In this document: positions 34,390-56,867 of the stretch, in pieces | How the letters are laid out: every line of letters begins with the position of its first letter | Numbering within the stretch: position 1 is the stretch's first letter | The notes under the pieces: generated by a model | Database searches by the model: none | Told to the model about the DNA's origin: nothing | Seen by the model: the letters and a program-made list of their open reading frames with translations, nothing else | NCBI GenBank assembly: GCA_020851835.1 | Contig: JADZBZ010000167.1 | Location: 13,128 to 77,127, forward strand | DNA from: Acidobacteriota bacterium | Lineage (GTDB): Bacteria > Acidobacteriota > Vicinamibacteria > Vicinamibacterales > UBA2999 | Direction: 5' to 3' | Length of the DNA: 64,000 nt | Program-made: the position numbers and the translations under genes

Positions 34390-34393
34390 GATT

Positions 34394-34999: not shown

Positions 35000-35071
35000 G
35001 ACCCGGACTGCCGGTTGCCGCAAGGTCGGAAGAAGGTCGAATCGTCTGTGCGACGAACCGCTCGCATGCAG

Positions 35072-35100
35072 GTGAGTGTCTCGGCAGGCCAAAGGCTTAC
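35072..35100 (-). promoter_or_regulatory. ECF-type promoter candidate, class 1: GTAAGC-N16-CACTCAC
   Basis: Minus-strand reading is ttGTAAGCctttggcctgccgagaCACTCACct, about 75 nt upstream of ECF sigma 1 (autoregulation pattern). Confidence 0.6.
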
Positions 35101-35977: not shown

Positions 35978-36532
35978 ATGCATTTAACAATCCACACGTT
36001 GGAGTCGGCGCCTGATGAGGCCAAGGACCTGTTGAAGGCGGCCCACGATCGATTCGGATTCCTGCCCAACCTGCTCGGCGAGCTGGCGGGATCGCCGCCC
36101 GCGCTCGAGGCCTACTTGACGCTCGGCCGTTTGCTGGAAGAGACGTCATTGACGCGCCAGGAGCAGCAGGTCGTGCTGGCCGCCGCGAGCGTGGCGAACA
36201 ACTGCAAGTACTGCGTGGCGGCGCACACCGCGGGTCTGAAAGCCGCGGGCCTGGCTGAAGATCAGATCGAGGCGCTTCGCAGCGGGCGCGCGCTCGCCGA
36301 CCCCAGCCTGGAAGCGGTACGGTCTCTGACGGCGGCCGTGGTCGGAAGTCGTGGATGGGTGGGCGAGACCGAGCTGCGGAGTTTTCTGGACGCAGGTCAC
36401 ACGAAGGAGCAGGTCCTCGAGGTGCTGCTCGGGGTCGCCATGAAGACGCTGAGCAACTACACGAACCATGTGGCCCACACGCCGCTCGACGCGGCGCTCG
36501 AGGCGTTCGCCTGGGAAGCCGTGCGGGCCTGA
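35978..36532 (+). CDS. carboxymuconolactone decarboxylase (AhpD-like) family protein
   Basis: AAASVANNCKYCVAAHT (CxxC...H AhpD-type motif) in a two-repeat CMD fold. Confidence 0.8.
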   Translation: MHLTIHTLESAPDEAKDLLKAAHDRFGFLPNLLGELAGSPPALEAYLTLGRLLEETSLTRQEQQVVLAAASVANNCKYCVAAHTAGLKAAGLAEDQIEALRSGRALADPSLEAVRSLTAAVVGSRGWVGETELRSFLDAGHTKEQVLEVLLGVAMKTLSNYTNHVAHTPLDAALEAFAWEAVRA

Positions 36533-36596: not shown

Positions 36597-37616
36597 ATGA
36601 CAACGATCCCGAGGGCCCGGCTATCGGACGGCGGCGCGATGACGCTGTCGCGACACATCCTGGAGTCGCAGCGGCAGGCGCCGCGCGCGCGCGGCGAGCT
36701 CTCGGTCCTGCTCCTGCAGCTCGCGTTCGCCGGCAAGATCTTCTCGCACGCACTCCGCCGGTCCGCACTCGATGGCCGTCTCGGACCGACCGGCGACCGC
36801 AACGTCCAGGGCGAGGCCACGAAGCAACTCGACGTGTTCGGCAACAACACGATCGTCGAGGCGTTCGCCCGGAGCGAGCTGGTGGCCGCGATCGTGTCGG
36901 AGGAACTGGACGAGCCGCGCGAGATCGCGTGCGGCGAGCGGGCGAGCTACGTGCTGTGCGTGGATCCGCTGGACGGCTCGTCCAACAGCGACGTCAATGG
37001 CGTGGTCGCGACGATCTTCGGCGTCTATCGGCCGCCCCGCGAGAATGGCGCCGAGGCCAGCCTGGCGCGCGTGCGGTCAGGCCGCGACCAGGTCGCCGCC
37101 GGCTACATCATGTACGGTCCGAGCACGATCTTCGTCTACACGACAGGCAGCGGCGTGCACGGCTTCACCCTCGATCACGATATCGGGGAATTCCTGCTGA
37201 CCCATCCACAGATGGAGTGCCCGCCGCACGGCCCCTACTACGCCGCGAACCTGGCAAACCTGCAGGACTGGGACGCGGGCGCGCAGGAGTACGTCCGGCA
37301 TCTGGCGGCGGGCCTCGATCGCACTTACTCGCTCCGCTACTCGGGCGCGCTGGTGGCCGATGTCCACCGCAGCCTGCTCGAAGGAGGGATTTATCTGTAT
37401 CCCGCGGATCGGCAGCATCCCTCCGGCAAACTCCGCCTCGCCTACGAGTGCGCGCCGCTGGCGTTCGTCCTGGAGCAGGCGGGCGGCGCCGCCAGCACCG
37501 GAACGTCGGCGGTGCTCGACGCGCCGTTTGAGTCCATCCATCAGCGTGTCCCGTTCGCGGGGGGCAGCCGCGACGAGGTCGCGATGCTGGAGCGGTTCAC
37601 CCGTGATCGCCGCTGA
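36597..37616 (+). CDS. fbp: class 1 fructose-1,6-bisphosphatase (copy 2)
   Basis: Same motif set as copy 1 (NVQGEATKQLDVF, VDPLDGSSN, GKLRLAYECAPLAF), roughly two-thirds identical by eye. Start could be the internal MTLSRH. Confidence 0.9.
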   Translation: MTTIPRARLSDGGAMTLSRHILESQRQAPRARGELSVLLLQLAFAGKIFSHALRRSALDGRLGPTGDRNVQGEATKQLDVFGNNTIVEAFARSELVAAIVSEELDEPREIACGERASYVLCVDPLDGSSNSDVNGVVATIFGVYRPPRENGAEASLARVRSGRDQVAAGYIMYGPSTIFVYTTGSGVHGFTLDHDIGEFLLTHPQMECPPHGPYYAANLANLQDWDAGAQEYVRHLAAGLDRTYSLRYSGALVADVHRSLLEGGIYLYPADRQHPSGKLRLAYECAPLAFVLEQAGGAASTGTSAVLDAPFESIHQRVPFAGGSRDEVAMLERFTRDRR

Positions 37617-38346
37617 CCTGCGCGTGTTCGCGGACGCCGGCGCGGTGGCCAGCGCCGCGGCGCGCGAGGTCGCGCGCGTGCTTGGGGCGGCCGTGCGACG
37701 CCATGGGTCGGCGTCAATGGCGCTGGCGGGCGGCCAGACGCCGCGCGGGCTCTATCGGTGCCTCGCGCTCGATCACCGCGACGACACGCTCTGGGATCGC
37801 GTGGATGTCTATTGGGGCGACGAGCGCGACGTCCTGCACGATGACCACCGCAGCAACTACCGAATGGCGCGCGAATCGCTGCTCGACCACGTGGCGGTGC
37901 GGCCCGAACGCGTGCATCCGATGCCCATGTCGCCCGGTGACCCTGACCGGACGGCGGCAGAATACGAACGCACCCTGCGCGCGCGGTTCGATGGCGAGTG
38001 GCCGCGGTTCGACGTGGTGCTGCTGGGCATTGGCGACGACGGGCACACGGCGTCGCTCTTTCCTCGATCGGCGGCGCTGGACGAAACCACACGCTGGGTC
38101 GTCGCGACGACTGCGCCGACCGAACCGCGCGGCCGGGTGAGCCTCGCGCTCCCGGCCCTCACCCACGCCGCGGCGATCTTCGTGGTGGACGCCGGACGCT
38201 CGAAGGCCGAGGCGCTGCGCTGTGCCCTGATCACCCGTCCAGATCCCAGCTGTCCCGCTTCTTTCATCCGAACCGCGCACGCCCCTGTCCTCTGGTGGGT
38301 CGATGCCGAGGCGGCCGCGCTTCTCGGCCCGGAGAATCTCCGATGA
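37603..38346 (+). CDS. pgl: 6-phosphogluconolactonase
   Basis: LAGGQTPRGLY...VYWGDERDV...LLGIGDDGHTASLFP. GTG start overlapping the fbp2 3' end. Confidence 0.9.
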   Translation: MIAADLRVFADAGAVASAAAREVARVLGAAVRRHGSASMALAGGQTPRGLYRCLALDHRDDTLWDRVDVYWGDERDVLHDDHRSNYRMARESLLDHVAVRPERVHPMPMSPGDPDRTAAEYERTLRARFDGEWPRFDVVLLGIGDDGHTASLFPRSAALDETTRWVVATTAPTEPRGRVSLALPALTHAAAIFVVDAGRSKAEALRCALITRPDPSCPASFIRTAHAPVLWWVDAEAAALLGPENLR

Positions 38347-39119
38347 CGCGCACACCGTCAGTCTCCCGCAGTCGGCGCGCACGGGCTCGCGCCGTCCCGC
38401 GCACACTGGCCATCGACGTCGGCGGCACGGGGTTGAAGGCGGCCATCCTCGATCCGGTCGGCAGGCTCGTGGGCGACCGCGTGCGCGTGCCGACTCCCGC
38501 GCGATGTCCGCCGGCGGTTCTGGTACGCGCCGTACGCGATTTGGTGGCACCGCTGGGCCCGTACGACCGCGTCTCGGTGGGCTTTCCTGGAGTCGTTCGG
38601 GACGGTGTGGTGCGGACCGCGCCGAACTTCGGCAGCGCGCGGTGGCAAGGGTTCGACCTGGCGCGCGCGCTCACCCGCGCGTTGAAGCGACCCGTCCGCG
38701 TGCTCAACGATGCGGAGGTGCAGGGGCTCGCCGTGATCTCCGGAAAGGGCGTCGAGCTGGTCGTCACGCTGGGCACCGGCGTCGGCAGCGCGCTGTTCCG
38801 CGACGGGATACTGATGCCGCATTTCGAGCTGTCACAGCATCCCGTGCACGGCCACCGCACCTACGACGAATACCTGGGCGACCGGGCTCGCAAACGAGTG
38901 GGGAGGCGCAAGTGGACGCGCCGCGTCCGCAGGGTCATTCGCATTCTGGAGACCGTCTTCAACTACGACCGGCTGCACATTGGAGGCGGCAACGCGGCGC
39001 GTATCGACTTTCGACCGGGCCGTCGCGTACGTTTGGTCGACAATGCGGCGGGCCTGCTGGGAGGAGTGGCGCTGTGGCGCTCTCACCCCACCGCGCAGGC
39101 GTGGCGGGGACCCCGTTGA
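38343..39119 (+). CDS. ROK-family glucokinase (polyphosphate/ATP glucokinase-like)
   Basis: LAIDVGGTGLKAA, VGFPGVV, LNDAEVQG, TLGTGVGSAL motifs. ATGA overlap with pgl. Confidence 0.75.
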   Translation: MTRTPSVSRSRRARARAVPRTLAIDVGGTGLKAAILDPVGRLVGDRVRVPTPARCPPAVLVRAVRDLVAPLGPYDRVSVGFPGVVRDGVVRTAPNFGSARWQGFDLARALTRALKRPVRVLNDAEVQGLAVISGKGVELVVTLGTGVGSALFRDGILMPHFELSQHPVHGHRTYDEYLGDRARKRVGRRKWTRRVRRVIRILETVFNYDRLHIGGGNAARIDFRPGRRVRLVDNAAGLLGGVALWRSHPTAQAWRGPR

Positions 39120-39176: not shown

Positions 39177-39205
39177 GTAATATGCCGGGCGCTGCACGCA
39201 CTCAT
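39177..39205 (+). promoter_or_regulatory. ECF-type promoter candidate, class 1: GTAATA-N16-CACTCAT
   Basis: Read directly: ccGTAATAtgccgggcgctgcacgCACTCATtc, about 100 nt upstream of arsM. Confidence 0.5.
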
Positions 39206-39302
39206 TCTTAGGTCGAGGTGTGAACGGCTCGTCTGGGCGGAGCCGGGCATCGCGCGCGATTGCCGGCTGCCTCAACTGGACGCGCCTTTGGAGGAGAGAA
39301 AC

Positions 39303-40481
39303 ATGACCGTGTTGACAGACCGCGAGCTCGACGTCGACGAGGCCGTGCACAGCAGGTATTCCGACGCCGCTCTGGCCCGGGCACCTGAGCTCTGCTGTCC
39401 GGTGTCCTACGATTCCGGCCTGCTCGCCGCGATCCCTGAGGACGTGCTGGCGCGGGACTACGGGTGCGGGGATCCGACGCGCCACCTGCGGCCCGGTGAA
39501 ACGGTGCTCGACCTCGGCTCGGGCTCCGGCAAGGTGTGTTTTATCGCGAGTCAACTCGTCGGACCCGCCGGACGCGTGCTCGGCGTGGACGTGAACGACG
39601 ACATGCTGGCGCTCGCCAGGCGCAGCGCGCCGCTTGTCGCTCAACACACCGGCTACGCCAATGTCACCTTCGGCAAGGCTCGCATCCAGGACCTCGCCCT
39701 TGATCTGGATTGTCTCGGGACGTACCTCGCCGCTCGTCCGGTCCGGTCTTCCGCGGATCTCGATCGTCTCGATGCGGAACTCAGACGCCTTCGCGCGGAG
39801 TCGCCGTTGGTGGCCGACGGGTCGGTCGACGTGGTGCTCTCGAACTGCGTGCTGAACCTGGTCCGGCCGGAAGACAAGTCGCGACTGTTTGCCGAAGTAT
39901 TTCGTGTCCTCAGGAGAGGGGGGCGCGCCGTGATCTCGGACATCGTGTCCGACGAAGACGTCCCGTCCCACATGCAGCAGGACTCGGACTTGTGGACCGG
40001 TTGCATCTCGGGCGCGTTTCGCGAGGACTGCTTCCTCGAGGCTTTCGAGACCGCCGGCTTTCATGGCATCGCCGTCGCGGCAAGGTCGGAGGTGCCGTGG
40101 CGCACGGTCAAGGGCATCGAGTTCCGCAGCGTCACGGTCATCGCTCACAAAGGCAAGCAGGGTCCGTGCCTGGATCACAAGCAGTCCGTCATCTATCGCG
40201 GACCGTTCCGTGAGGTCACCGACGATGACGGCCACGTGCTGCGGCGAGGCGTGCGAACGGCGGTCTGCGCCAAGACGTTCAACATCTTCGCGCGCGAGCC
40301 GTACCGGTCGCATGTGGACCTGGTCGAGCCGCGGGTTCCTGTCGCGGCCGAGGATGCTCGGTCGTTTCCGTGTGCGAAGGGCGCCCTGATTCGCGATCCC
40401 CGCGAGACCAAGGGCGAGGGGTACGACGTGACGACGGCACCGAGCGGTGCGACGTGCTCGCCAGACGGGGGGTGCTGCTGA
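39303..40481 (+). CDS. arsM: arsenite S-adenosylmethionine methyltransferase
   Basis: ATG after GGAGGAG. The four catalytic-type Cys contexts of ArsM are visible (ELCCPVSYD, DYGCGDP, LSNCVLNLV, LWTGCISGA), with SAM motif VLDLGSGSG, the ArsM C-terminal domain and terminal GGCC. Confidence 0.8.
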   Translation: MTVLTDRELDVDEAVHSRYSDAALARAPELCCPVSYDSGLLAAIPEDVLARDYGCGDPTRHLRPGETVLDLGSGSGKVCFIASQLVGPAGRVLGVDVNDDMLALARRSAPLVAQHTGYANVTFGKARIQDLALDLDCLGTYLAARPVRSSADLDRLDAELRRLRAESPLVADGSVDVVLSNCVLNLVRPEDKSRLFAEVFRVLRRGGRAVISDIVSDEDVPSHMQQDSDLWTGCISGAFREDCFLEAFETAGFHGIAVAARSEVPWRTVKGIEFRSVTVIAHKGKQGPCLDHKQSVIYRGPFREVTDDDGHVLRRGVRTAVCAKTFNIFAREPYRSHVDLVEPRVPVAAEDARSFPCAKGALIRDPRETKGEGYDVTTAPSGATCSPDGGCC

Positions 40482-41503
40482 TGTCCCGGACGGCTGCTCT
40501 TCAGACCGCGACGGCTCCGGAGGCCGTCGGCACGCCGGGCTTCGCACGAACGCTCACGGGGGCGGGCCTCGCGCCCCTCACGCGTGGCCACGTCACGACG
40601 CTGCAGGTCAACGTCGGCCGGTTGTGCAACCTGGCGTGTCATCACTGCCACGTCGAGGCCGGGCCGCGCGAGACCGACGTCATGCCGGCGCCCGTGGCGG
40701 CGCGCATCGTGGACCTGCTGGATCTGAACCCCGGCATCGAGATCCTGGATCTCACCGGGGGCGCCCCGGAAATGAACCCGAGCTTCCGCCATCTCGTTCG
40801 TGAAGCGCGGCGGCGGCAGCGGCGGGTCATCGACCGCTGCAATCTCACCATCCTGCTCGATCCCCGCTTCGACGACTTGCCGGAATTCTTCGCCGCTCAG
40901 CAGGTCCACGTGGTCGCCAGCCTGCCGTGCTACACGGCGGAAAACGTCGACAGCCAGCGGGGGCGCGGGGTGTTCCATGAGAGCGTCGAGGCTTTGAGGC
41001 GGTTGAACGCCCTGGGATATGGTCGCCCGGACTCCGATCTCCGATTGGACCTGGTCTACAACCCGCTCGGGCCGTCCCTGCCGCCGCCACAGTCGGCTCT
41101 GGAGGCGACGTACCGCGAGGAACTCGGCCGCCTGTTCGGCATCGAGTTCCACCAACTGCTGACAATCACGAACATGCCGATCCGCCGGTTCGCCTGGACC
41201 CTCGAGCGGAGCGGCCAGACGGAGGCGTACATGAGCCTGCTCGTCAATCATTTCAATCCCGCCACGGTGGCGGGCCTGATGTGCCGGACTTTGGTGAGCG
41301 TCGGCTTCGACGGACGCCTGTACGACTGCGATTTCAACCAGATGCTGGGGCTGCCGATCGGCGGCGCGGCACAAGCGGCGCCGCGAACGGTGTGGGACGT
41401 CGACGCTCTCGATGTCCTGACGGGACGCGCGATCGCGACCGGCCGCCATTGCTTCGGGTGCACGGCCGGCGCGGGGTCGAGTTGCTCCGGAGCGCTCCTG
41501 TGA
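40481..41503 (+). CDS. arsS: arsenosugar-biosynthesis radical SAM protein ArsS (TIGR04167-type rSAM/Cys-rich domain)
   Basis: LQVNVGRLCNLACHHCHVEAGP (CxxxCxxC) and C-terminal Cys-rich tail HCFGCTAGAGSSCSG. 1-nt overlap (TGATG) with arsM. Confidence 0.8.
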   Translation: MSRTAALQTATAPEAVGTPGFARTLTGAGLAPLTRGHVTTLQVNVGRLCNLACHHCHVEAGPRETDVMPAPVAARIVDLLDLNPGIEILDLTGGAPEMNPSFRHLVREARRRQRRVIDRCNLTILLDPRFDDLPEFFAAQQVHVVASLPCYTAENVDSQRGRGVFHESVEALRRLNALGYGRPDSDLRLDLVYNPLGPSLPPPQSALEATYREELGRLFGIEFHQLLTITNMPIRRFAWTLERSGQTEAYMSLLVNHFNPATVAGLMCRTLVSVGFDGRLYDCDFNQMLGLPIGGAAQAAPRTVWDVDALDVLTGRAIATGRHCFGCTAGAGSSCSGALL

Positions 41504-42657
41504 TCGTGGCGATTGTGCTCATCGGGATCGCGGGCCTGCTGGCCTACGCGAACGGCGCGAACGACGTCTCGAAGGGGATCGCCACGCTTGTGGGCAGCGG
41601 CGTCACCGACTACCGACGGGCCATGGCGTGGGGCGCGATGTGGACCGGCGCCGGGGCGGTGCTGGCCACGTTTGTGACGGGTGCCATGCTGGCGACTTTC
41701 GGGAGCGGTCTGCTGACGTCCGGTGCGGCGCCGACCGTGCCCATGGCCGTGGCGTCGATCGGCGGCGCCTCGGCGTGCGTGCTCCTGGCCACGCGGTTCG
41801 GGTTGCCGGTCTCGACCACGCACGCCATCGTGGGCGCGATCGTGGGCGCCGCGCTTGCCGCCTACGGATCGACGCACATCGCCTGGTCCGTCCTCGGCGC
41901 GCGCGTCGCGCTGCCGCTGGCTGCCAGCCCGATTGTCGCGATGAGCGCTTCGTGGCTGATCTTGCGGGGCGTCGGGCGCGTGATGGGACCCGCGACGTCG
42001 TCGGCCGATTGCGTGTGCATGACGGCGAACGTGCAGCCGGCGGCCGTGATCGCTCCGGCCGCCGTCCTCTCGTACGCGACGCCCGCGATGGACGTGGCCG
42101 TGTCGTACGGTCACGCCGACGATTGCGCCCAGGCGCATCCGGCGGCGTGGCGGCTGACGGGCGATCATCTCCATTGGTTGTCCAGCGGCGCCGTGAGCTT
42201 CGCGCGCGGATTGAACGACACGCCGAAGATCGTCGCGCTCGTGCTGGCCGTGGCGGCGTTGATGCCGGCCCGGAGAATCGCACCCTGGCATCTGTTCGGG
42301 GTGGTCGCGTTCGCCATGGTCGCCGGCAGCCTGCTGGCGGGGCGGCGCGTGACGAAGTTCCTGGCGGAGGACGTGACGTCGATGACCCACCGCGATGGTC
42401 TGACGGCCAACGTCGTGACCGCGGCGCTCGTGGTCGCCGGCGCCGTGCACGGTCTGCCCATGTCCACGACGCACGTGGCCTCCGGGGGCATCATCGGTGC
42501 AGGCGTCGATCGGGGTTCGATCGTCTGGGATACCGCCAGGAAGATGGCGCTCGCGTGGGTGATAACCGTCCCGGCGGCCGCCCTGCTCGCCGTCGTCATC
42601 TACGCGTTGACCACGGCCACCGGCGCGCACTGGCTGGCGCTCGGAGCCAGAGGGTGA
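41500..42657 (+). CDS. PiT-family inorganic phosphate (or arsenate) transporter
   Basis: AYANGANDVSKGIATLVG and GLPVSTTHAIVGAIVG repeats of PHO4/PiT. GTGA overlap with arsS. Confidence 0.8.
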   Translation: MIVAIVLIGIAGLLAYANGANDVSKGIATLVGSGVTDYRRAMAWGAMWTGAGAVLATFVTGAMLATFGSGLLTSGAAPTVPMAVASIGGASACVLLATRFGLPVSTTHAIVGAIVGAALAAYGSTHIAWSVLGARVALPLAASPIVAMSASWLILRGVGRVMGPATSSADCVCMTANVQPAAVIAPAAVLSYATPAMDVAVSYGHADDCAQAHPAAWRLTGDHLHWLSSGAVSFARGLNDTPKIVALVLAVAALMPARRIAPWHLFGVVAFAMVAGSLLAGRRVTKFLAEDVTSMTHRDGLTANVVTAALVVAGAVHGLPMSTTHVASGGIIGAGVDRGSIVWDTARKMALAWVITVPAAALLAVVIYALTTATGAHWLALGARG

Positions 42658-43382
42658 GACGGTGGATCAAGGCGGCTGCCCTTGTGGCCTTGGCGTCCCT
42701 GGCCGTCGAGGCCGCCATCGCGTTTCCCATCGGTCGCCACGTGGATCAGATTGTCGAGTGGATTCGCGCGGCGGGTCCGGCTGGGGTCCTGGCGTATGCC
42801 GGGATCTATGTGCTGGCCGCCGTGCTGATGTTGCCGGGGTCGGCATTGACCGCCGCGGCCGGACTCGCGTACGGGCCGTGGTGGGGCGTGGCGCTCGTCT
42901 CGCCGGTCAGCGTGGCCGCCGCCACGCTGTCGTTCGTCCTGGGACGCACCCTCGCGCGGCCGTGGGTAGCGAGGCGCATCGAGGCCGATCCCAGATTTCG
43001 CGCGATCGATGCCGCAGTCGCTCGGCAGGGGTTCAAGATCGTGCTGCTGCTCCGGCTCTCTCCGGTCTTTCCGTTCAATGTGCTCAATTACGCGCTGGGC
43101 CTGACGGGCGTCCGGCTGCGCCATTACGTGCTGGCGTCCTTCCTTGGCATGCTGCCTGGCACGTTTCTCTACGTCTATCTCGGGTCCCTCGTGCGTGACG
43201 TCGCCGGGCTCGCGGCCGGCGGCGACGGCGCGGGCGTCGCCCGGCACGTCGCGTCGGCCGTCGGTTTCCTGGCGACCGTCGCCGTTACGATCTACATCGC
43301 CCGCATCGCGCGGCGGGCCCTCGACGAGGAGTTGTCTCGGCCTGCGCCGCGCGTGAGCCGGCCGGTCGGAGAAGGGCGGTGA
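42654..43382 (+). CDS. TVP38/TMEM64 (DedA-related, SNARE-associated) membrane protein
   Basis: LPGSALTAAAGLAYGPWWG...LLLRLSPVFPFNVLNYALGLT motif. GTGA overlap with the PiT gene. Confidence 0.8.
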   Translation: MRRWIKAAALVALASLAVEAAIAFPIGRHVDQIVEWIRAAGPAGVLAYAGIYVLAAVLMLPGSALTAAAGLAYGPWWGVALVSPVSVAAATLSFVLGRTLARPWVARRIEADPRFRAIDAAVARQGFKIVLLLRLSPVFPFNVLNYALGLTGVRLRHYVLASFLGMLPGTFLYVYLGSLVRDVAGLAAGGDGAGVARHVASAVGFLATVAVTIYIARIARRALDEELSRPAPRVSRPVGEGR

Positions 43383-44113
43383 CCAAGGCCAGGCGGGCGC
43401 ACGTGACGTGGGAGCCGGACGAGTGGCCCGATCGCACGGCGACGTCGCGCATCGCGCTGTGCGTGTTCGCAAAGCCTCCGCGTGCGGGACACGCGAAGAC
43501 GCGGCTTGCGACGGCGATAGGCGACGGGCTGGCCGCGGAATTGGCGCGGGCGTTCGTCCTGGACACATGGGCGCTCGTTAGTGGCATGCCCTGGGCGGAT
43601 CCGATCCTGGCCACGACCGACGCCGCCGATCCCGTTTGGGCTGCGCTGCCTGGGACGCGCGTGTGGCCTCAAGGGGACGGCGACCTCGGCGATCGCATGG
43701 AACGCGTGCTGCGCCAGGCGCTCGCGAGCTATCCCGCGGCGATCATTGTCGGTACCGACATTCCCGGACTTCCTGTCGAGCACCTCGACGCCGCGCGAGT
43801 CGGTCTCTCGGCGGCCGACGCCGTGATTGGCCCCTGCGAGGACGGCGGCTTCTACCTTGTGGGGAGCCGGCGGTGCCCACCCGGGCTGTTCGATCAGATT
43901 CCGTGGGGTACCGATCTGGCGTACGCGCGAACGGAGGAACGGCTTCGGAACGTCGGGCTTTCCTTGATCCGGACGCCGTCGTGGTTCGACGTCGACCGTC
44001 CCGAGGATCTGAACCGCCTTCGCGCACTGGGGGATTCGCTGCGCAAGAGGGCGCCCGCAACAGCACGAGTGCTTGAACGAGTGACCGCCGGCGTTCGCGG
44101 TGAGGCGTCATGA
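43379..44113 (+). CDS. TIGR04282 / DUF2064 glycosyltransferase-like protein
   Basis: LCVFAKPPRAGHAKTRL...IIVGTDIPGL...GPCEDGGFYLVG...IPWGT pattern of DUF2064. GTGA overlap upstream and ATGA overlap downstream. Confidence 0.75.
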   Translation: MTKARRAHVTWEPDEWPDRTATSRIALCVFAKPPRAGHAKTRLATAIGDGLAAELARAFVLDTWALVSGMPWADPILATTDAADPVWAALPGTRVWPQGDGDLGDRMERVLRQALASYPAAIIVGTDIPGLPVEHLDAARVGLSAADAVIGPCEDGGFYLVGSRRCPPGLFDQIPWGTDLAYARTEERLRNVGLSLIRTPSWFDVDRPEDLNRLRALGDSLRKRAPATARVLERVTAGVRGEAS

Positions 44114-44802
44114 CGGATCGGCTGTCGGTGGTGATCCCGGTCCTCAATGAAGCGGGCCGCATCGGCGGTCAACTCGCTCGACTTGCAACCTTGCCCGGGA
44201 TTCACGACATCGTCGTGGCCGATGGCGGCAGCACCGATGGGACCGTCGAGATCGTTCGGGCCGCTGGGACAGGGCGCTTGGTCCATGCCCCGGCTGGCCG
44301 CGGACCACAGATGAACGTGGGGGCGCGAGCGGCGACGGGGACCGTGCTGATCTTCCTGCACGCCGACGTCGAGCTTCCGGCCGACGCCGAGAATCTTGTG
44401 GCGGCCGCTTTGTCCGATCCGGCCATCGTCGGCGGCGCCTTCCGCGTCAGGACCGTCTCGGACGGATTCAGGGGCTGGCCGGAGAAGTGGTTATGGCTCG
44501 CCGACCTCCGGTCCCGCTACGCGCGGCTGCCGTACGGCGACCAGGCCGTCTTCGTGCGGCGAGAGGTGTTCGACAGGCTGGGTGGATTCGCGCCGCTGCC
44601 GTTGTTCGAAGACGTCGAGTTCGCTCGGCGCCTGCGGCGGGCCGGGCGCCTCCGAATCCTGCCGGCGGCAGTTCGAGTGTCGGGGCGGCGATTCATGGTG
44701 CGCCCCTACGCATCCGGCGTACTGATGAATCTCCTGCCGGCGCTGTTCCGGCTCGGCGTGCCGGCGACTACGCTCGCTCGTCTCTACGGGCAGGTGCGAT
44801 GA
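44110..44802 (+). CDS. family-2 glycosyltransferase, TIGR04283-like (copy 2)
   Basis: SVVIPVLNEA...ADGGSTDGT...FLHADV, and a C-terminal LGVPATTLARLYGQVR shared with 8210-8908. Confidence 0.75.
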   Translation: MTDRLSVVIPVLNEAGRIGGQLARLATLPGIHDIVVADGGSTDGTVEIVRAAGTGRLVHAPAGRGPQMNVGARAATGTVLIFLHADVELPADAENLVAAALSDPAIVGGAFRVRTVSDGFRGWPEKWLWLADLRSRYARLPYGDQAVFVRREVFDRLGGFAPLPLFEDVEFARRLRRAGRLRILPAAVRVSGRRFMVRPYASGVLMNLLPALFRLGVPATTLARLYGQVR

Positions 44803-44831
44803 AGCGAACGCGGTCTTGGTGAGGTGAACAC

Positions 44832-45437
44832 GTGTCCATTCGACCATTCATGGCCCTCATCGCGATCCCTGGACTGCTGGCAGGCTGCGCGCGCGATCCT
44901 GGCCGGGACGTCCAGCCGATCTCCCTCACGGGAAACGATGTCACTGGCGCGGGATCGTCGTCCGAGATCCTTCCACTCGACCAGGTCCGGAAGAGCCAAG
45001 CCGCGGCGGTGGCCCAGCGCGTCGCGAACACGCAGATTACCGTGACTTACAGCCGTCCCCTGGCTCGCGGGCGGGCATTGTTCGGCCAGCTCGTGCCGTA
45101 CGACCAGGTCTGGAACCCTGGCGCCGATCAGGCCACGGCCGTGCAGTTCAGCCGGGACGTCCAGGTTGCCGGCCACTTACTCGTAGCCGGGAAGTACAGC
45201 CTCTGGATGATTCCGCGCGCCGGGCGCTGGACGGTCATTTTCAATCGGGCCGCCGACGTGTACCACACGCCCTATCCCGGGCAGGCGCAGGACGCGCTGC
45301 GGCTCGACGTCGAACCGGGCGACGGTCCCGAGACGGACGTCCTCACCTTCGACTTTCCACTGGTCGACGGCAAGGAGGCAGTGTTGCGGCTGCACTGGGG
45401 GACGGTCACCGTGTCCGTTCCCGTCGTCGTGCCGTAG
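44832..45437 (+). CDS. DUF2911 lipoprotein
   Basis: Lipobox LLAGC and DUF2911 core ITVTYSRPLARGRALFGQLVPYDQVWNPGADQAT...GKYSLWMIP. Confidence 0.75.
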   Translation: MSIRPFMALIAIPGLLAGCARDPGRDVQPISLTGNDVTGAGSSSEILPLDQVRKSQAAAVAQRVANTQITVTYSRPLARGRALFGQLVPYDQVWNPGADQATAVQFSRDVQVAGHLLVAGKYSLWMIPRAGRWTVIFNRAADVYHTPYPGQAQDALRLDVEPGDGPETDVLTFDFPLVDGKEAVLRLHWGTVTVSVPVVVP

Positions 45438-45505: not shown

Positions 45506-45534
45506 GTAATGTTTCGATCGACGCGGCCACTCAC
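45506..45534 (+). promoter_or_regulatory. ECF-type promoter candidate, class 1: GTAATG-N16-CACTCAC
   Basis: Read directly: ctGTAATGtttcgatcgacgcggcCACTCACac, about 70 nt upstream of the thioredoxin-family gene. Confidence 0.55.
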
Positions 45535-45601
45535 ACCACGATGCTCCGGCCATCGGCCGGGGCCGCTCAGCGGCCCGAAAGACCCAGAGGAGACACACAT
45601 C

Positions 45602-46018
45602 ATGCTGATCCGCAGCTTCAAGGCCTCCGTGCTCATGGCCGCGTTACTTGTGGCGGGGCACACCGCCGTGTTTGCCCAGGCCACGGACAACAATCCGAAA
45701 CCGTTCTCGCGCGAGGCCTTCGATGCGGCCACGGCGGCAGGCAAGACGGTCATGGTGGCGTTTCACGCGCCCTGGTGCCCGGTGTGCAAGGCCCAGGAGC
45801 CGAAGATTGAAGCGCTGCTGAACACCGAGTACAAGAACGTCGTGGCCTTCAACGTGGACTACGACACCAACGTGCCGCTGCGGAAGGAAATGCACGTCCT
45901 CAAGCAGGCGACGCTCATCATGTTTCGCGGTGACAAGGAAATCGCGCGCCTGAGCTTTCAGAGTGACGACGCCTCGATCCGGCAGTTCTTTGCCCACGCG
46001 AAGACCACCGGCCGGTAG
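45602..46018 (+). CDS. secreted thioredoxin-family protein (WCPVC)
   Basis: Signal peptide, then VAFHAPWCPVCKAQ. ATG after AGAGGAG. Confidence 0.8.
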   Translation: MLIRSFKASVLMAALLVAGHTAVFAQATDNNPKPFSREAFDAATAAGKTVMVAFHAPWCPVCKAQEPKIEALLNTEYKNVVAFNVDYDTNVPLRKEMHVLKQATLIMFRGDKEIARLSFQSDDASIRQFFAHAKTTGR

Positions 46019-46021
46019 CCC

Positions 46022-46732
46022 GTGCTCCGATTGGCCCTCAGTTTCGCCGCAGGCCTGCTGACGGCGTTGTCCCCGTGCGTGCTGCCCGCCCTGCCGATCG
46101 TGGTCGGCAGCGCGGCGGCCAGCCGCCGCCATGGGCCGCTGGCGCTCGCGGCCGGCCTCGTCGTGGCGTTCACCCTCGTCGGCCTGGCCATCGCGTCCGC
46201 CGGTACGTTCTTGGGCATTTCTGAGGACGCGGTTCGGGCAGGCGCCGCCCTCATGCTCGTCGCGGCGGGTATCGTCCTCTTCAGCCATCGTCTGCAGGAT
46301 GCGCTGAGCCGACGTCTATCGCCGATCGCGTCCGCGGCCGCGCGCGCCACGACGCGGGTCGGCGACGGCCTCGCCGGACAGTTTGCCGTGGGGGCGATGC
46401 TCGGGGCCGTTTGGAGTCCGTGTGTCGGGCCGACGCTCGGCGCGGCCATCGGCCTCGCGGCGTCCGGCCATTCCGCGGGATGGGCCGCGGCGCTGATGTT
46501 GGCCTTCGGTCTGGGTTCGGCGGCTCCGCTGCTGGCGATTGCCTATTTCTCGAGACGCATGATCGCGAGGCGCGGTCGGTTGATCTCCCTGGCTGAACGT
46601 GGCAAGCCGCTGTTCGGCGGAGCGCTCGTGCTGATGGGAGCGCTGGTGTTCCTGGGTGTGGACAAGGTGATTGAAGCCGCCGTGCTGGCGAGGCTGCCGC
46701 AATGGTGGATCGACCTCCTTGCGAGCGTGTAG
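46022..46732 (+). CDS. ccdA: cytochrome c biogenesis CcdA / DsbD-core thiol-disulfide transporter
   Basis: FAAGLLTALSPCVLPALP and GAVWSPCVGPTLGAA, the two conserved membrane Cys motifs. Confidence 0.85.
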   Translation: MLRLALSFAAGLLTALSPCVLPALPIVVGSAAASRRHGPLALAAGLVVAFTLVGLAIASAGTFLGISEDAVRAGAALMLVAAGIVLFSHRLQDALSRRLSPIASAAARATTRVGDGLAGQFAVGAMLGAVWSPCVGPTLGAAIGLAASGHSAGWAAALMLAFGLGSAAPLLAIAYFSRRMIARRGRLISLAERGKPLFGGALVLMGALVFLGVDKVIEAAVLARLPQWWIDLLASV

Positions 46733-46735
46733 GTC

Positions 46736-47908
46736 TTGTCGGCGGCTGCCACGGGCGCGCATTCATCCCGGACGTCAGACGTGACTCGCGACATCGTGCT
46801 GCTCGGTCTCGGCCACACCAACGCCGAAATCGTCCGCCGATGGCGCCGGAGGCCGTTTCGCGACGCCCGGCTCGTCTGCGTATCGGATAGCGCTTCTGCC
46901 GCGTACTCGGGCATGCTGCCGGCGGTTCTGGCTGGGCAGTGTCCGCCCGAACGGATGCGGATCGATCTCGCGCGCCTCTGCAAGGCGGCCGGCGCGGAGT
47001 TGGTCGTCGGATGCGCAATCGGGCTTGACGTCGCGCGGCGCCAACTCATCATGGACGGCTCCGCACCGGTCCGGTTCGACGTGCTGTCCATCGGTGTGGG
47101 GTCGGTCCCGACCGTGGCCGGCGTCGTCGTTGCCGACGCCAGGCCCTATATTCCGGTCAAACCCATGCGCACTCTGCTGTCCCGGCTCATCGCACGATTC
47201 GATCGGGTCGTGGATTCGTTCCGGCCGCAGACCGTCCGCGTTTCGATTGTCGGCGGAGGCGCCGGCGGGGTGGAACTGGCGCTGTGCATCGCGCCCTTCA
47301 TTCAGGCCACCTACCCGCGGCTGTCGGACGTCGGCGTGACGATCGTGACAGCCGACGGCGATCTTTTGCCCGGCGGCCTCCCGCGGACGCGTGAGCGCCT
47401 CGCTCGGATTCTGCGCGCGCGCCGCGTCCAGGTGGAGCGAAATGCTCGCGTGGTCAGGATCGACTCGGAGGGCGTGTCGCTCGAAGATGGCCGGACCCTT
47501 CAGAGCGACGCGGTCATATGGGCGACCGGTGCGGCTCCCCCACCTGTGCTCTCGACCTTTGGCCTTCCGGTGGACGACGCCGGATTCTTGCGCACGCGCA
47601 GTACTCTGCAGGTAGTGACCGGGGATCCGGTTTTCGCCGTGGGTGACACGGGCAGCATTGACGGCGCGGTGATGCCCAAGGCCGGTGTGTATGCGGTCCG
47701 GCAGGGGCCGCTGTTGTGGGAGAACCTCCGGCGCGCGCTCGATGGCCGGCCGCTGCGGCCGTTCGTGCCCCAGCCCGGGTTTCTCCGACTGCTCAACACC
47801 GGGGACGGACGAGCCCTGGGAGACTGGCGCGGGTGGTCCTTCGAGGGGACCTGGGTTCGGGTCTGGAAGGACATGATCGACCGCCGTTTCGTCGCGAGAT
47901 ATCAGTGA
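46736..47908 (+). CDS. FAD-dependent pyridine nucleotide-disulfide oxidoreductase, TIGR03169-like (family often fused N-terminally to SelD)
   Basis: NDH-2-like two-Rossmann layout (IVLLGLGHTNAE, VSIVGGGAGGVE, VFAVGDT). Confidence 0.65.
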   Translation: MSAAATGAHSSRTSDVTRDIVLLGLGHTNAEIVRRWRRRPFRDARLVCVSDSASAAYSGMLPAVLAGQCPPERMRIDLARLCKAAGAELVVGCAIGLDVARRQLIMDGSAPVRFDVLSIGVGSVPTVAGVVVADARPYIPVKPMRTLLSRLIARFDRVVDSFRPQTVRVSIVGGGAGGVELALCIAPFIQATYPRLSDVGVTIVTADGDLLPGGLPRTRERLARILRARRVQVERNARVVRIDSEGVSLEDGRTLQSDAVIWATGAAPPPVLSTFGLPVDDAGFLRTRSTLQVVTGDPVFAVGDTGSIDGAVMPKAGVYAVRQGPLLWENLRRALDGRPLRPFVPQPGFLRLLNTGDGRALGDWRGWSFEGTWVRVWKDMIDRRFVARYQ

Positions 47909-47952: not shown

Positions 47953-49305
47953 TCAGGGCTGGTCTCTCAGCCGCGCGTACACGGCATCCCGTACGCCGCC
48001 CGCGTTGACCTGGCACATCGGGACCATCTCGCCGTCGACGGGCACGCGGAGCACGCACGCTGACAGCCGTTCCTGTCCCGTTGCGGTGCCCAGTTCCGCC
48101 GGGCTCATGAAATGGTGCGAGACCACGGCGAAGCTGTCGATTCTCACGCGGCCTCGCGCAAGGTTCCACGCCAGACGCGAGCCGCTGGTCTCGAGGGCGG
48201 CGAGCCGACCGACCACCCAGCGACGCAGGGGGCCGAGCGTCCACGCCGGGTCCGTCAGCAGAATTCCCATCGCCCGACACGCGCGTTCCAGGGGCCTGTC
48301 GTCGCGGAAGTTGAGGCCACCCAGGCCGCGGTTCAGGAACGCGCGCATCATGTCAACGTCCGTTTCGTCGTCGCGCAGGATCGGAAAGACGCGCGGATCG
48401 CTTCCCGCGCGCTCATAGACGCCGAGGAGCTCGAGCCGCGTGCAGTCGGGATGGCCGAACGTGATCGCACGCGGCCCGCGGCGAACGAGACCGAAGCGCG
48501 CCAGGACCGGCTCGATCCGGTCCCACAGCTCCTGGACCGTCACGGCCTGCAGGCCCTTCTCCGTCCGGCCCACGCGCGCGACCGGCTGGAACGATAACAT
48601 CCCGAAGACATCGCGATTCCGCAGGCACCACTCGACGACAGGCGGCACGTCGTCGAGGTTGTCGCGCGTGATCGTCAACGTCGTGGCGGCACGAAGCGAC
48701 AGGCCCGTGGCGGTCCGCGCGGATCGAATCATGGCCGCGCACTCCTCGCGGAGCGGCGTCAACATGGTTTCGTCCGCCGGTCGCTTGTAGCCGAGTCGGC
48801 CGCGCTGCGTCGTGTCGATGTGGATCGACACCTCCGTCAGACCGGCCTCCGCCATCAGCCGCTCGAGCAGGCCGGGCCGGCGGCGGAACGTGTCGCCGTG
48901 AGTCATTACCATCGGGATGAGACCAATCCGGCGAGCGTGGCGGATATTCGCCGCGAGATCCTCAGTGGGCAGGAGCGTGACTTCGCCGTCCGTGATCTGC
49001 ACGTTGCCTTTCGGTCCGAGCCACGCCCGGAGCCGATCGAGCTGCTGGAATACTTGTTCGCGGCTGGCAGGCGGGATGCGGTTGGCTTCCTCTCCCAGGT
49101 AGCAACCCGTACAAGCGAAGTCGCAGCGAGGCTGGATCCCGATGGTCGCGCCACATCCGGTGGCCTGCTGTCCGAAGCCCTGTCCCGGCGTGCGCCACCG
49201 CGGGTCGAGCGAGGCCCACTGCTCGCGCAGCAGCCGTCTCTTTTCGTCCGGCACCGGCGACCTGAGGAGACGCAGCGCATCGATCAGCCGTGGCTTGCCG
49301 CTCAT
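47953..49305 (-). CDS. radical SAM protein, unassigned subfamily (~450 aa)
   Basis: IQPRCDFACTGCY (CxxxCxxC) near the N-terminus and a large C-terminal extension ending ...MVPMCQVNAGGVRD. Start set at MSGKPRL (49305), ATGA-overlapping the upstream gene. Confidence 0.7.
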   Translation of the reverse strand: MSGKPRLIDALRLLRSPVPDEKRRLLREQWASLDPRWRTPGQGFGQQATGCGATIGIQPRCDFACTGCYLGEEANRIPPASREQVFQQLDRLRAWLGPKGNVQITDGEVTLLPTEDLAANIRHARRIGLIPMVMTHGDTFRRRPGLLERLMAEAGLTEVSIHIDTTQRGRLGYKRPADETMLTPLREECAAMIRSARTATGLSLRAATTLTITRDNLDDVPPVVEWCLRNRDVFGMLSFQPVARVGRTEKGLQAVTVQELWDRIEPVLARFGLVRRGPRAITFGHPDCTRLELLGVYERAGSDPRVFPILRDDETDVDMMRAFLNRGLGGLNFRDDRPLERACRAMGILLTDPAWTLGPLRRWVVGRLAALETSGSRLAWNLARGRVRIDSFAVVSHHFMSPAELGTATGQERLSACVLRVPVDGEMVPMCQVNAGGVRDAVYARLRDQP

Positions 49306-49877
49306 CGCGGCGCCCCGCTCCGACGCACCGTCAGCAGCGTCCCAATCGACGGCCGATCGGCCGGTCCCGATCCGCGGTGAAGCAGTCTGACGATGCCCGA
49401 CGGATCCACGAGAACGTCTCCGCCGAGTTGATAGATGTCGTTGGCCAGGGCCGACGCTCGAGGCGTGCGCCCTCGGAACAGCTCCTTGATATATGCCCAA
49501 CAGGTGCGCGGCCCCCAGACATTCCACCGCGTGCCGAGAAACATGCCGCAGGCGGCATACAGCGTCCGCGTCTCATCGATGACAACCGGCCAGTCGAAGC
49601 CCATTTCGCGCACCCACGCGTCCGCGACCGGGCCTCCCATGAACGACACCACGACAATCTGGACATCGAGGTCTTGAAAGATCCGCTCGGAATCTTTCAG
49701 ATCGAGGAGGTGTCGGCGGCACGGCAGGCACCCCAGGTGCCGATGGAACACGAGCAGCAGCCAATGTCCGCGATAATCCTCGAGGCGACGCACCTGGCTT
49801 TGGGCGTCCGGAAGCTCGAACGGCGGGGCCTGACCTCCAACGACGGCGTGTGGCGGCTCCGGCGTCACCGCCGCCAC
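49302..49877 (-). CDS. peroxiredoxin-like (PRX_like2 / AhpC-TSA family) protein
   Basis: APPFELPD...WLLLVFHRHLGCLPCRRH thioredoxin-fold CxxC motif. GTG start. Confidence 0.7.
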   Translation of the reverse strand: MAAVTPEPPHAVVGGQAPPFELPDAQSQVRRLEDYRGHWLLLVFHRHLGCLPCRRHLLDLKDSERIFQDLDVQIVVVSFMGGPVADAWVREMGFDWPVVIDETRTLYAACGMFLGTRWNVWGPRTCWAYIKELFRGRTPRASALANDIYQLGGDVLVDPSGIVRLLHRGSGPADRPSIGTLLTVRRSGAPR

Positions 49878-51403: not shown

Positions 51404-51418
51404 TGGCCTGTACTGGGT

Positions 51419-52261: not shown

Positions 52262-52325
52262 CGAGCGTGTCTCCGATGTCTCGGACTAATGGCGCCCGCT
52301 CGCGTGGCCGGCGCGGTCATTGAGG

Positions 52326-56702: not shown

Positions 56703-56731
56703 GTGAGTGCAGGCCGCGGGGCGGACATTAC
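56703..56731 (-). promoter_or_regulatory. ECF-type promoter candidate, class 1: GTAATG-N16-CACTCAC
   Basis: Minus-strand reading is ctGTAATGtccgccccgcggcctgCACTCACac, about 60 nt upstream of bufA. Confidence 0.6.
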
Positions 56732-56752
56732 AGGCCCGGGAGGACCACGGCT

Positions 56753-56781: not shown

Positions 56782-56867
56782 TAGCTGTGGCCAACGCGGG
56801 CCGGCGGCCGAACGGAACGAACCCGTGGGCGGCCCGCGCGAGCTTAAAGGACATCAGGAGAGGTGTG

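Follow-up and report, generated by a model that had tools for sequence, protein, structure and literature searches.

An extended, probable arsenosugar-type operon with a predicted ECF sigma factor promoter in an uncultured Acidobacterium

Arsenosugars and arsenolipids figure prominently among the arsenic compounds of the environment and the diet, and we know of only the first two enzymes of their biosynthesis, ArsM and ArsS. In the present study we analyzed a stretch of 64,000 nucleotides from an uncultured Acidobacterium (contig JADZBZ010000167.1 of assembly GCA_020851835.1, positions 13,128 to 77,127; hereafter the window), in which an arsM-arsS pair is followed by four further overlapping genes and preceded by a motif resembling the promoters of extracytoplasmic function (ECF) sigma factors. 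We argue that this region is likely to be one operon and the local copy of a widespread, conserved pathway for organoarsenicals of the arsenosugar type. The gene chain is not special to its source genome and belongs to a widespread clade. We describe the locus as an extended, putatively ECF-controlled arsenosugar-type operon of heterotrophic soil bacteria, the main value of which is the set of candidate parts it supplies for the pathway's later steps.

The gene chain and its protein families

Six co-oriented genes occupy positions 39303-44802 of the plus strand, and according to the table of open reading frames (ORFs) and the junction strings their start and stop codons overlap as TGATG, GTGA, GTGA, GTGA and ATGA, in that order. 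They encode a long-type, ArsM-like As(III) S-adenosylmethionine (SAM) methyltransferase (39303-40481), an ArsS radical SAM enzyme (40481-41503), a PiT-family anion transporter of a CxC...C subfamily (41500-42657), a TVP38-like VTT/DedA membrane protein (42654-43382), a TIGR04282 (DUF2064) GT-A/nucleotidyl-transferase-like protein (43379-44113) and a TIGR04283 family-2 glycosyltransferase (44110-44802). The original prediction, which was made from the DNA letters and their translations, had described such an overlapping chain, and the junctions and families were all found as it stated them. In searches with hidden Markov models TIGR04167, TIGR04282 and TIGR04283 scored above their curated cut-offs and PF01384 and PF09335 far above the Pfam thresholds. 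The ATG of arsM is preceded by GGAGGAG, with TTG at 39288 as an alternative start, and independent gene calls agree on the lengths of PiT (385 aa, NCBI) and DedA (242 aa, Logan assembly). A co-oriented gene for a DUF2911 lipoprotein (44832-45437, plus strand; PF11138, 140 bits; LLAGC lipobox), which the prediction had also placed downstream of the chain, indeed follows the TIGR04283 gene after a 29-nt gap and is probably co-transcribed with the six genes. Among about 55 scanned ORFs of the window, a few large pentose-phosphate and glycosidase ORFs being judged by eye only, none matched the ArsR, ArsB, Acr3 or ArsC families, and tblastn with two ArsC types from relatives as queries gave no match within the window, in agreement with the earlier statement that arsR, arsB/acr3 and arsC are absent from it. 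By tblastn the window likewise holds no 5'-methylthioadenosine (MTA) phosphorylase (best E = 0.057), and TIGR04169 is absent from it.

The ArsM-like protein carries a 30-residue insertion and a Cys-rich C-terminal domain which ends in GGCC. Its best curated model is NF040538, the arsinothricin-type ArsM (329 bits, cut-off 500), which matches in one continuous stretch across the insertion, followed by NF008823 (190 bits, cut-off 263) and NF038099, the cyanobacterial arsenosugar ArsM; with only 122 bits against a cut-off of 400 for the latter, an assignment to the cyanobacterial arsenosugar type does not hold. In HMMER alignments C55 (YGCGD), C182 (SNCVLNL) and C234 (TGCISGA) align with Cys72, Cys174 and Cys224 of CmArsM (structures 4FR0/4FS8 and 4KW7), and an N-terminal pair, C31/C32, sits just upstream of the aligned block. 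These five cysteines are kept in 48-49 of 49 ArsS-linked homologues (49 for four of them and 48 for one), all of which also share the 30-residue insertion and several C-terminal cysteines. The cysteine contexts and the terminal GGCC are thus as had been claimed from the letters. We read this protein as a presumably genuine arsenic methyltransferase, from a clade which partners radical SAM enzymes that form C-As bonds.

The ArsS identity, also proposed earlier, is well supported. The protein matches TIGR04167 with 434.2 bits (cut-off 300) over model positions 2-303 of 303, as well as PF04055, and possesses both claimed motifs, the cluster motif CNLACHHC (CX3CX2C) and CFGCTAGAGSSC. It has the C-terminal Cys-rich domain PF12345/DUF3641 (177 bits), and C268, C283, C324, C327 and C335 are invariant across 22 homologues. 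The enzyme is of the Cys form and no selenoprotein, and NCBI names the identical protein ArsS. In Synechocystis sp. PCC 6803, arsS is cotranscribed with arsM (bioRxiv 10.1101/2022.09.23.509062) and ArsS adenosylates trivalent dimethylarsenic, DMAs(III), to 5'-deoxy-5'-dimethylarsinoyl-adenosine (DDMAA; PMC13598754). The window ArsS probably shares the DDMAA-forming chemistry of this family member, to which it is akin in its TIGR04167 radical SAM assignment, its DUF3641 C-terminal domain and its translational coupling to an As(III) methyltransferase gene. The two systems differ in that the window ArsM is of the long type, nearest to the arsinothricin model and far from NF038099, and in that the window operon adds PiT, DedA and both transferases, lies in a non-phototrophic Acidobacterium and has a predicted ECF sigma control. 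The arsinothricin cluster arsQML of Burkholderia gladioli is similar in another respect: the curated ArsM model closest to the window protein is the arsinothricin-type NF040538, and in both a methyltransferase, a radical SAM enzyme forming a C-As bond and a membrane permease are encoded together in one operon (PMC8552651). There, however, the radical SAM enzyme is the non-canonical ArsL, which transfers a 3-amino-3-carboxypropyl group, whereas that of the window is of the ArsS type, which transfers 5'-deoxyadenosyl; in addition the window ArsM stays below the family cut-off, its permease belongs to the PiT family, and glycosyltransferase-like genes are present.

The third gene was predicted to encode a PiT protein, and both the Pfam match (PF01384, PHO4; 206.8 bits, gathering cut-off 33.7) and the predicted fold confirm this. 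An AlphaFold2 model (pLDDT, the predicted local distance difference test, 89.6) matched the Na/phosphate transporter TmPiT of Thermotoga maritima (6L85) in Foldseek with a TM-score of 0.76 and a probability of 1.00, and the signatures of both repeats, GANDVSKG and PVSTTH/PMSTTH, are retained. With 45 bits for PitA (phosphate; cut-off 800) and 60 bits for CysP (sulfate; cut-off 400) the protein falls into neither of these substrate classes. It differs from the known members of the family (TmPiT, E. coli PitA and B. subtilis CysP), with which it shares the fold and repeat signatures, in its low identity to TmPiT (21-22%), in its synteny with ArsS and in a central non-membrane insert, modeled as a beta-hairpin and a short helix, which carries a CxC...C motif. 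The cysteines of this motif, C171, C173 and C209, are invariant in an alignment of 25 homologues, and 74 of 86 sequences carry the full set, including distant ArsS-linked PiTs from Thermoanaerobaculia, Nitrospirae, Omnitrophota and Planctomycetota. Three thiols are a classic As(III) ligand set. We consider that the protein is most likely a carrier of oxyanions (arsenate/phosphate), and that its cysteine insert could bind trivalent arsenic for sensing or gating; the locus would then define a PiT subfamily whose cysteine triad may bind arsenic.

Both transferases, which had been named as neighbours of the pair, are real members of their families and lie in the same overlapping chain as ArsS. The TIGR04282 protein (164 bits, cut-off 134) is related to CofC, and among solved structures it comes nearest to 3CGX, a 'putative nucleotide-diphospho-sugar transferase'. 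For the TIGR04283 protein (207 bits, cut-off 182) the closest solved relatives are the GT2 entry 6YV7 and glucosyl-3-phosphoglycerate synthase, and weak matches were found to the polyprenyl-phosphate glycosyltransferases AglJ and PpgS.

Gene order and additional partners in relatives

We examined the surroundings of related genes in two samples. For the ArsS set an ArsS alignment was scanned against one genome per GTDB species, which gave at least 596 confirmed loci, mostly in non-phototrophic species, the best 80 of which were kept; the PiT set comprises 80 metagenomic loci, found by a metagenome scan with a PiT alignment (46-58% identity), a scan with the single PiT protein having found no relative. 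Neighbours in these 160 loci were identified by tblastn with the window proteins at E <= 1e-8, so that all counts are lower bounds, and most sampled genomes are metagenome-assembled genomes with short contigs. The best 80 ArsS loci come from Myxococcota, Acidobacteriota, Planctomycetota, Binatia, Nitrospirota, Proteobacteria, Bacteroidota and others, all of them lineages not known as phototrophs. The earlier notion of an ArsM-ArsS core in a non-phototroph stands, the host itself being an uncultured Acidobacterium. In the 49 ArsS loci with at least 4 kb on each flank, the neighbours were ArsM (19), the MerA-like oxidoreductase described below, which contains flavin adenine dinucleotide (FAD) (12), TIGR04282 (9), DedA (8), TIGR04283 (5, and 2 more that best match the second TIGR04283 copy of the window), a fatty-acid hydroxylase (5) and DUF547 (2).

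In the PiT set the commonest order was (DUF547)-ArsM-ArsS-PiT-DedA-(MerA-like FAD oxidoreductase)-TIGR04282-TIGR04283. ArsS lies at most 3 kb upstream of PiT in 35 of the 53 loci with enough flank, DedA follows PiT in 40 of 60, and at least one partner was present in 34 of 42. The variant of the window, in which the chain lacks the flavoprotein, is common to four loci (L083, L084, L109 and L161), and PiT-ArsS linkage was also observed in genomes of Thermoanaerobaculia, Nitrospirae, Methylophilaceae, Omnitrophota and Planctomycetota. In the protein database, too, the best PiT and the best ArsS matches in many cases agree in the length of the longest contig. This conserved placement around ArsS argues that PiT and DedA are true members of a conserved operon which is common in soil and sediment metagenomes, and functional partners rather than accidental neighbours, as the original prediction had supposed. 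Two points need correction. Far from being unusual, this arrangement is the one seen most often in a widespread clade, the core genes of which NCBI already names 'arsenosugar biosynthesis'. The cassette should not be called complete, since relatives add DUF547 and the MerA-like FAD oxidoreductase, both of which lie elsewhere in the window, and some of them also MTA phosphorylase, ArsC or TIGR04169, which the window lacks. Of the NCBIfam/TIGRFAM 'arsenosugar biosynthesis' set (TIGR04167, TIGR04169, TIGR04282 and TIGR04283) three of four members are present in the window above cut-off. Outside this named set stand PiT, DedA, the MerA-like oxidoreductase, DUF547, the fatty-acid hydroxylase, MTA phosphorylase/ArsC and the ECF sigma factor, and our literature search found no paper linking them to arsenosugars, PiT, DedA/TVP38 and DUF547 included. 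The ArsM-ArsS core and its link to TIGR04282 and TIGR04283 are already known and appear in NCBI product names; new are the conserved CxC...C motif of the PiT subfamily, the DUF547, FAD oxidoreductase, fatty-acid hydroxylase and second TIGR04283 genes elsewhere in the window, the insertions of MTA phosphorylase/ArsC in relatives, the enriched motif and the linked ECF sigma factor. The DUF2911 gene, considered as a further conserved partner, was rejected, for none of the 160 loci showed it near ArsS or PiT.

The DedA protein (PF09335, VTT; 102 bits) is a candidate member of the COG0398 (TVP38-like) branch, and its orthologues in relatives are usually followed by the FAD oxidoreductase, a MerA-like FAD-containing disulfide oxidoreductase whose window copy lies apart on the minus strand (49865-51403; NF004991, 723 bits, cut-off 620). 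Inside the cassettes of most relatives this gene stands directly after DedA; 47 of the 80 PiT-set loci have it, and it lies downstream of PiT in 39 of the 60 with enough flank. In the COG0398 branch of DedA proteins, for which a role as phospholipid scramblases has been proposed for TVP38-type members, pyridine nucleotide-disulfide oxidoreductases are the commonest fusion partner, with function unknown (PMC10127716). The direct succession of DedA and MerA-like flavoprotein genes in relatives resembles such fusions, whereas in the window the two genes are separate (42654-43382, plus strand, against 49865-51403, minus strand), and the link to ArsS and ArsM is not in that report. We propose, as hypotheses, that the flavoprotein keeps arsenicals trivalent for ArsS and that DedA translocates a lipid or metalloid. 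The locus would offer the first functional context for this enigmatic pair.

Further families came to light when the unassigned neighbour ORFs of all loci were clustered. After the ECF sigma factor discussed below, the most recurrent of them was MTA phosphorylase (12 loci; TIGR01694, 321 bits, cut-off 275). It lies directly after or near ArsS in six genomes of the ArsS set (proteobacterial, Bdellovibrionaceae and one unclassified), and in L090, L106 and L108 directly upstream of PiT, after ArsS where the contig includes ArsS. In L106 a thioredoxin-type ArsC is completely fused to the MTA phosphorylase, and the corresponding ORFs of L090 (347 aa) and L108 (265 aa, cut by the contig end) carry the motif of low-molecular-weight ArsC; we know of no description of such a domain combination. 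A glutaredoxin-type ArsC was found in 4 loci and TIGR04169, the 'arsenosugar biosynthesis-associated peroxidase-like protein', in 8. The occurrence of MTA phosphorylase and ArsC inside the cassettes of relatives supports arsenic as the substrate and suggests a route for removal of adenine: because DDMAA is a 5'-substituted adenosine like MTA, its phosphorolysis to adenine and arsenoribose-1-phosphate would be an economical step, and a sugar-1-phosphate product would fit TIGR04282 as an activating enzyme.

Several of these families have members elsewhere in the window. The DUF547 protein (52769-53566, minus strand; PF04784) has homologues in 11 PiT-set and 4 ArsS-set loci, where as a rule they immediately precede ArsM and often form the first cassette gene. 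Its gene opens a six-gene redox operon (47953-53566, minus strand) which further encodes a YtxJ/BrxC monothiol protein, an alpha/beta hydrolase, the MerA-like oxidoreductase, a SelL-related redox protein (157 bits, cut-off 120) and a radical SAM protein. Of its members, just DUF547 and the flavoprotein are found again alongside ArsS at other loci, with a single case for the radical SAM gene. The last (47953-49305, minus strand) shows weak Tes/TrsS-like similarity (NF045702 59 bits, NF045646 52 bits, both far below cut-off), and a homologue of it with 53% identity adjoins TIGR04283 and DUF547 in L003; its link to the arsenic system is tentative. At the other end of the window, a fatty-acid hydroxylase-family gene (7374-8213, plus strand; PF04116, with a weak OlsE match) overlaps by 4 nt the gene of the second TIGR04283 glycosyltransferase (8210-8908, plus strand; 196 bits, cut-off 182), and a DUF3179 gene (6003-6977, minus strand) lies close by. 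Homologues of the hydroxylase adjoin ArsS in 7 genome loci and occur in 5 PiT-set loci, and those of DUF3179 in 5-7 loci; since all three families recur beside ArsS/PiT cassettes, they suggest a detached module, 31 kb from the main chain. An AhpD/CMD-family protein (35978-36532, plus strand; PF02627, and TIGR01926 at a sub-threshold 60 bits, cut-off 81.8) has homologues of 41-54% identity next to the cassette in 5 loci, L083 and L084 among them. A blastp comparison with the window gene placed homologues of the DUF255 protein described in the next section near the cassette of 2 loci, and the all-vs-all cluster represented by L095_1703_4078 comprises 4 loci.

The promoter-like motif and the ECF sigma factors

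The ECF-type promoter-like motif GTAATA-N16-CACTCAT, noted in the original prediction upstream of the chain, lies at 39177-39205 on the plus strand, about 98 nt upstream of the arsM ATG and inside a 183-nt intergenic gap after a ROK-family gene. A search for GTAATA-N16-CACTCA with up to 2 mismatches gave 12 matches in the window against 0.52 expected, most of them reading GTAATG, and none of 100 shuffled sequences reached 12. Eleven of these sites lie upstream of a co-oriented gene or overlap its provisional start; the twelfth (37214) is probably spurious. Besides arsM, the motif precedes merT-merP-merA, a Trx-DsbD-TIGR03169 operon, a DUF2282-MbnB-DUF2063-DoxX operon, a thioredoxin-ECF sigma operon, the ECF sigma gene at 35092, and the genes for a DUF255 thioredoxin-domain protein, a DUF6789 membrane protein, an NmrA-like protein and an alpha/beta hydrolase; it also stands before a 90-aa ORF (57853-58125) with no Pfam match, which comes right after the second ECF sigma gene. 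Between 38900 and 45700 we detected neither a sigma-70-like promoter nor an intrinsic terminator. Owing to its frequency we had suspected the motif to be a housekeeping promoter, and discarded this idea, as its targets are metal- and thiol-stress genes and both ECF sigma genes, and it resembles a sigmaF site.

One of the two sigma genes (34394-35092, minus strand; ECF by Pfam) carries GTAAGC-N16-CACTCA at its own start and is followed by a zf-HC2 anti-sigma gene with an HxxxCxxC motif (34117-34389, minus strand; Pfam). Homologues of this sigma factor were the most frequent extra neighbour of the cassette (22-26 loci), and one lies at most 3.5 kb upstream of the cassette in 10 of the 27 loci with enough flank. 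In L083, L084, L146 and others the sigma gene is divergently adjacent to the cassette, often together with a zf-HC2 anti-sigma gene, and in L083, L084 and other closest relatives it stands immediately upstream of the DUF547/ArsM operon. These observations make the sigma/anti-sigma pair at 34117-35092 a likely candidate for the regulator of the operon, which would then form part of a regulon for thiol/metal stress and not of an ArsR regulon, and they suggest an ArsR-independent ECF sigma control of arsenic biotransformation.

In Caulobacter crescentus the heavy-metal sigmaF recognizes GTAACC-N16-CGAA and controls a DUF2282-type operon (PMC3511200). The window agrees with this system in the -35 element GTAA(C/T), the 16-nt spacer and a DUF2282-DUF692(MbnB)-DUF2063-DoxX operon beside an ECF sigma gene. 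It differs in the -10 element, which is CACTCA and not CGAA; in the anti-sigma factor beside the cassette-linked sigma, which is a soluble zf-HC2 protein (HxxxCxxC) and not DUF1109/NrsF; and in its predicted regulon, which also takes in the mer, thioredoxin and arsM-arsS operons. The DUF2282 operon of the window, of the type that makes bufferins (ribosomally synthesized and post-translationally modified peptides), runs on the minus strand from 56777 down to 54240 in the order DUF2282, MbnB/DUF692, DUF2063 and DoxX, divergently from the thioredoxin-ECF sigma operon (56760-57889). The motif occurs in both directions at 56704-56780 and again at 57783, and this layout mirrors the Caulobacter sigmaF locus.

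Other genes with the motif may be described here. The mer operon on the minus strand consists of merT (17377-17817), merP (17026-17376) and merA (15065-16810), with GTAACA-N16-CACTCA about 230 nt upstream at 18045-18072; an ORF called on the plus strand (16949-17401) was dismissed as a shadow ORF, the real genes being merP and merT. Directly downstream of the lipoprotein gene, 45509-47908 (plus strand) encode a secreted thioredoxin, a DsbD-like membrane protein and a TIGR03169 ('N-terminal to SelD') oxidoreductase (340 bits, cut-off 310), with a copy of the motif at 45506-45533. This operon, as well as the SelL-related protein, the alpha/beta hydrolase and the YtxJ protein of the redox operon, was considered as a part of the cassette and rejected, for none recurs in the 160 loci, bar a single TIGR03169 match. 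The DUF255 thioredoxin-domain protein (2302-4584, minus strand; 760 aa) has a DsbD_N-like C-terminus and the motif upstream, and a MerR-family regulator (770-1201, minus strand) is divergent from the motif-preceded NmrA-like gene.

Proposed pathway, alternative explanations and other genes of the window

Combined together, these data allow a pathway to be drawn. ArsM, to judge from its conserved arsenic-binding cysteines, would methylate As(III) to DMAs(III), which ArsS, by virtue of its family membership, would convert via a 5'-deoxyadenosyl radical to DDMAA. Adenine would then be taken off, probably by phosphorolysis with an MTA-phosphorylase-type enzyme, as encoded in the cassettes of relatives though not in this window, and the arsenoribosyl unit would pass to TIGR04282, as a nucleotidyl-transferase-like activating enzyme, and be transferred by the TIGR04283 glycosyltransferase onto a small C3 or lipid acceptor. 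PiT would carry an oxyanion (arsenate/phosphate) and DedA may work with the MerA-like flavoprotein at 49865-51403. Transcription is predicted to start at the ECF-type promoter GTAAT-N16-CACTCA, under the sigma/anti-sigma pair at 34117-35092.

A number of points weigh against the reading of the region as an operon for an arsenosugar-type pathway. The ArsM reaches no NCBIfam equivalog cut-off; the substrate of arsinothricin-type ArsM is an organoarsenical and, since the window protein is closest to this type, ArsM and ArsS could act in another order. As in Synechocystis the enzyme may precede ArsS, or, like its arsinothricin counterpart, it may take an organoarsenical as substrate. The roles proposed for TIGR04282 and TIGR04283 are deduced from neighbourhood and fold. 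The window encodes no adenine-removing enzyme, arsenate reductase or arsenite efflux pump, so the pathway as drawn needs genes elsewhere in the genome. Among the 49 ArsS loci with flanks, PiT is a minority partner (4 of 49) and 16 have none of the tested partners, which implies that the extended cassette is restricted to a clade; the counts themselves are limited in that the samples are non-random, consisting of the best tblastn matches among pattern matches. As regards control, the two ECF sigma factors of the window are not distinguishable as the cognate factor, and the exact window motif was found upstream of arsM in 1 of 48 relatives and is not enriched across loci, so that the motif as such would be lineage-specific. 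By eye, GTAAC-N16-GAC-like sites were seen in the intergenic regions between sigma gene and cassette of 4 loci. The earlier suggestion of control by a stress sigma factor rather than by ArsR is plausible from the enrichment of the motif, its placement before co-oriented genes and the recurrent ECF sigma neighbour.

We still hold the operon reading to be the best account of these data, and four other or further-reaching explanations were weighed beside it. The boldest is that PiT, the DedA/flavoprotein pair, MTA phosphorylase(-ArsC) and TIGR04282/TIGR04283 constitute the missing post-DDMAA part of arsenosugar or arsenolipid synthesis, with ArsR replaced by an ECF switch which itself senses As(III). 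Arsenate would be taken up by PiT, the tri-cysteine insert of which would sense trivalent arsenic, then reduced, methylated by ArsM and adenosylated by ArsS; MTA phosphorylase would release arsenoribose-1-phosphate, TIGR04282 would activate it with a nucleotide, TIGR04283 would transfer it to a glycerol or lipid acceptor and DedA would flip the product, all under a thiol-stress switch of ECF sigma and zinc anti-sigma factor. In its entirety this scheme is, in our judgment, unlikely. A similarly small chance may be given to a membrane arsenolipid, instead of a soluble arsenosugar, as the end product. TIGR04283 would then act on a lipid or polyprenyl-phosphate acceptor, which its weak matches to AglJ and PpgS would allow, although its closest solved relatives, e.g. 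glucosyl-3-phosphoglycerate synthase, glycosylate small soluble acceptors. DedA would serve as scramblase or flippase, as proposed for COG0398/TVP38-type phospholipid scramblases (PMC10127716), but no substrate of a DedA of this subfamily is known. The lipid would be tailored by the fatty-acid hydroxylase, which recurs by ArsS or TIGR04283 in 12 loci and overlaps the second TIGR04283 gene of the window, and by Tes/TrsS-like radical SAM enzymes, which are encoded in 5 loci, at 47953-49305 of the window and in L003. In the window, however, these lipid-related genes lie outside the chain, and the Tes-like similarity amounts to 59 bits against a cut-off of 450.

A simpler explanation would be detoxification by methylation and adenosylation only, with PiT as an ordinary phosphate importer which out-competes arsenate or restores phosphate, with DedA and the transferases in envelope functions, and with no arsenosugar made. 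The retention of GANDVSKG, PVSTTH/PMSTTH and the TmPiT fold in PiT and the lack of an adenine-removing enzyme in the window would suit this, and even in Synechocystis arsS mutants are not arsenic-sensitive, which leaves the physiological role unclear there (bioRxiv 10.1101/2022.09.23.509062). Yet the order ArsS-PiT-DedA-(FAD oxidoreductase)-TIGR04282-TIGR04283 is kept in dozens of loci from several phyla, the PiT subfamily has its own conserved CxC...C insert, and the chains of relatives contain MTA phosphorylase and ArsC. These three features argue for a dedicated multi-step pathway, and we regard detoxification alone as quite improbable. Finally, the system might act on selenium or another metalloid and not on arsenic. 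The neighbouring TIGR03169 oxidoreductase (340 bits versus 310) and SelL-related protein (157 versus 120) prompt this thought, as does the fact that members of the ArsS and ArsM families are often selenoproteins (PMC13188914); selenoprotein status, however, concerns the catalytic residue and not the substrate, and the TIGR03169 and SelL-related genes are not recurrent near ArsS or PiT, with a single TIGR03169 match in 160 loci. Moreover ArsS has been biochemically characterized with DMAs(III) (PMC13598754), ArsM keeps its three As(III)-binding cysteines without exception, and ArsC of the thioredoxin and glutaredoxin types is fused or adjacent to cassette genes of relatives, all of which makes a substrate other than arsenic highly improbable.

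For the favoured reading of an arsenosugar-type operon, the locus and its approximately 40 syntenic relatives amount to a gene list for the remaining steps, namely MTA phosphorylase, TIGR04282, TIGR04283, the FAD oxidoreductase and DUF547. It would further imply that heterotrophs of soil and sediment (Acidobacteriota, Myxococcota, Planctomycetota, Binatia and Nitrospirota), beyond algae and cyanobacteria, may make complex organoarsenicals.

Some other gene groups of the window may be mentioned. At its end, and running off it, 58854-64000 (plus strand) encode a Cus/Czc-type efflux system of the resistance-nodulation-division class, with an outer-membrane factor, a CusB-like adaptor with a YtkA/FixH-like domain and an AcrB-family pump, which adds to the metal-stress character of the window. 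Central carbon metabolism is represented by a pentose-phosphate and gluconeogenesis cluster at 18145-27142, comprising transketolase, RpiB, a transaldolase-PGI fusion, FBPase, a 6PGDH-like protein and G6PD, mostly assigned by eye. A second FBPase paralogue, a 6-phosphogluconolactonase and a ROK kinase, the latter two assigned by Pfam, are encoded at 36597-39119, directly upstream of arsM.

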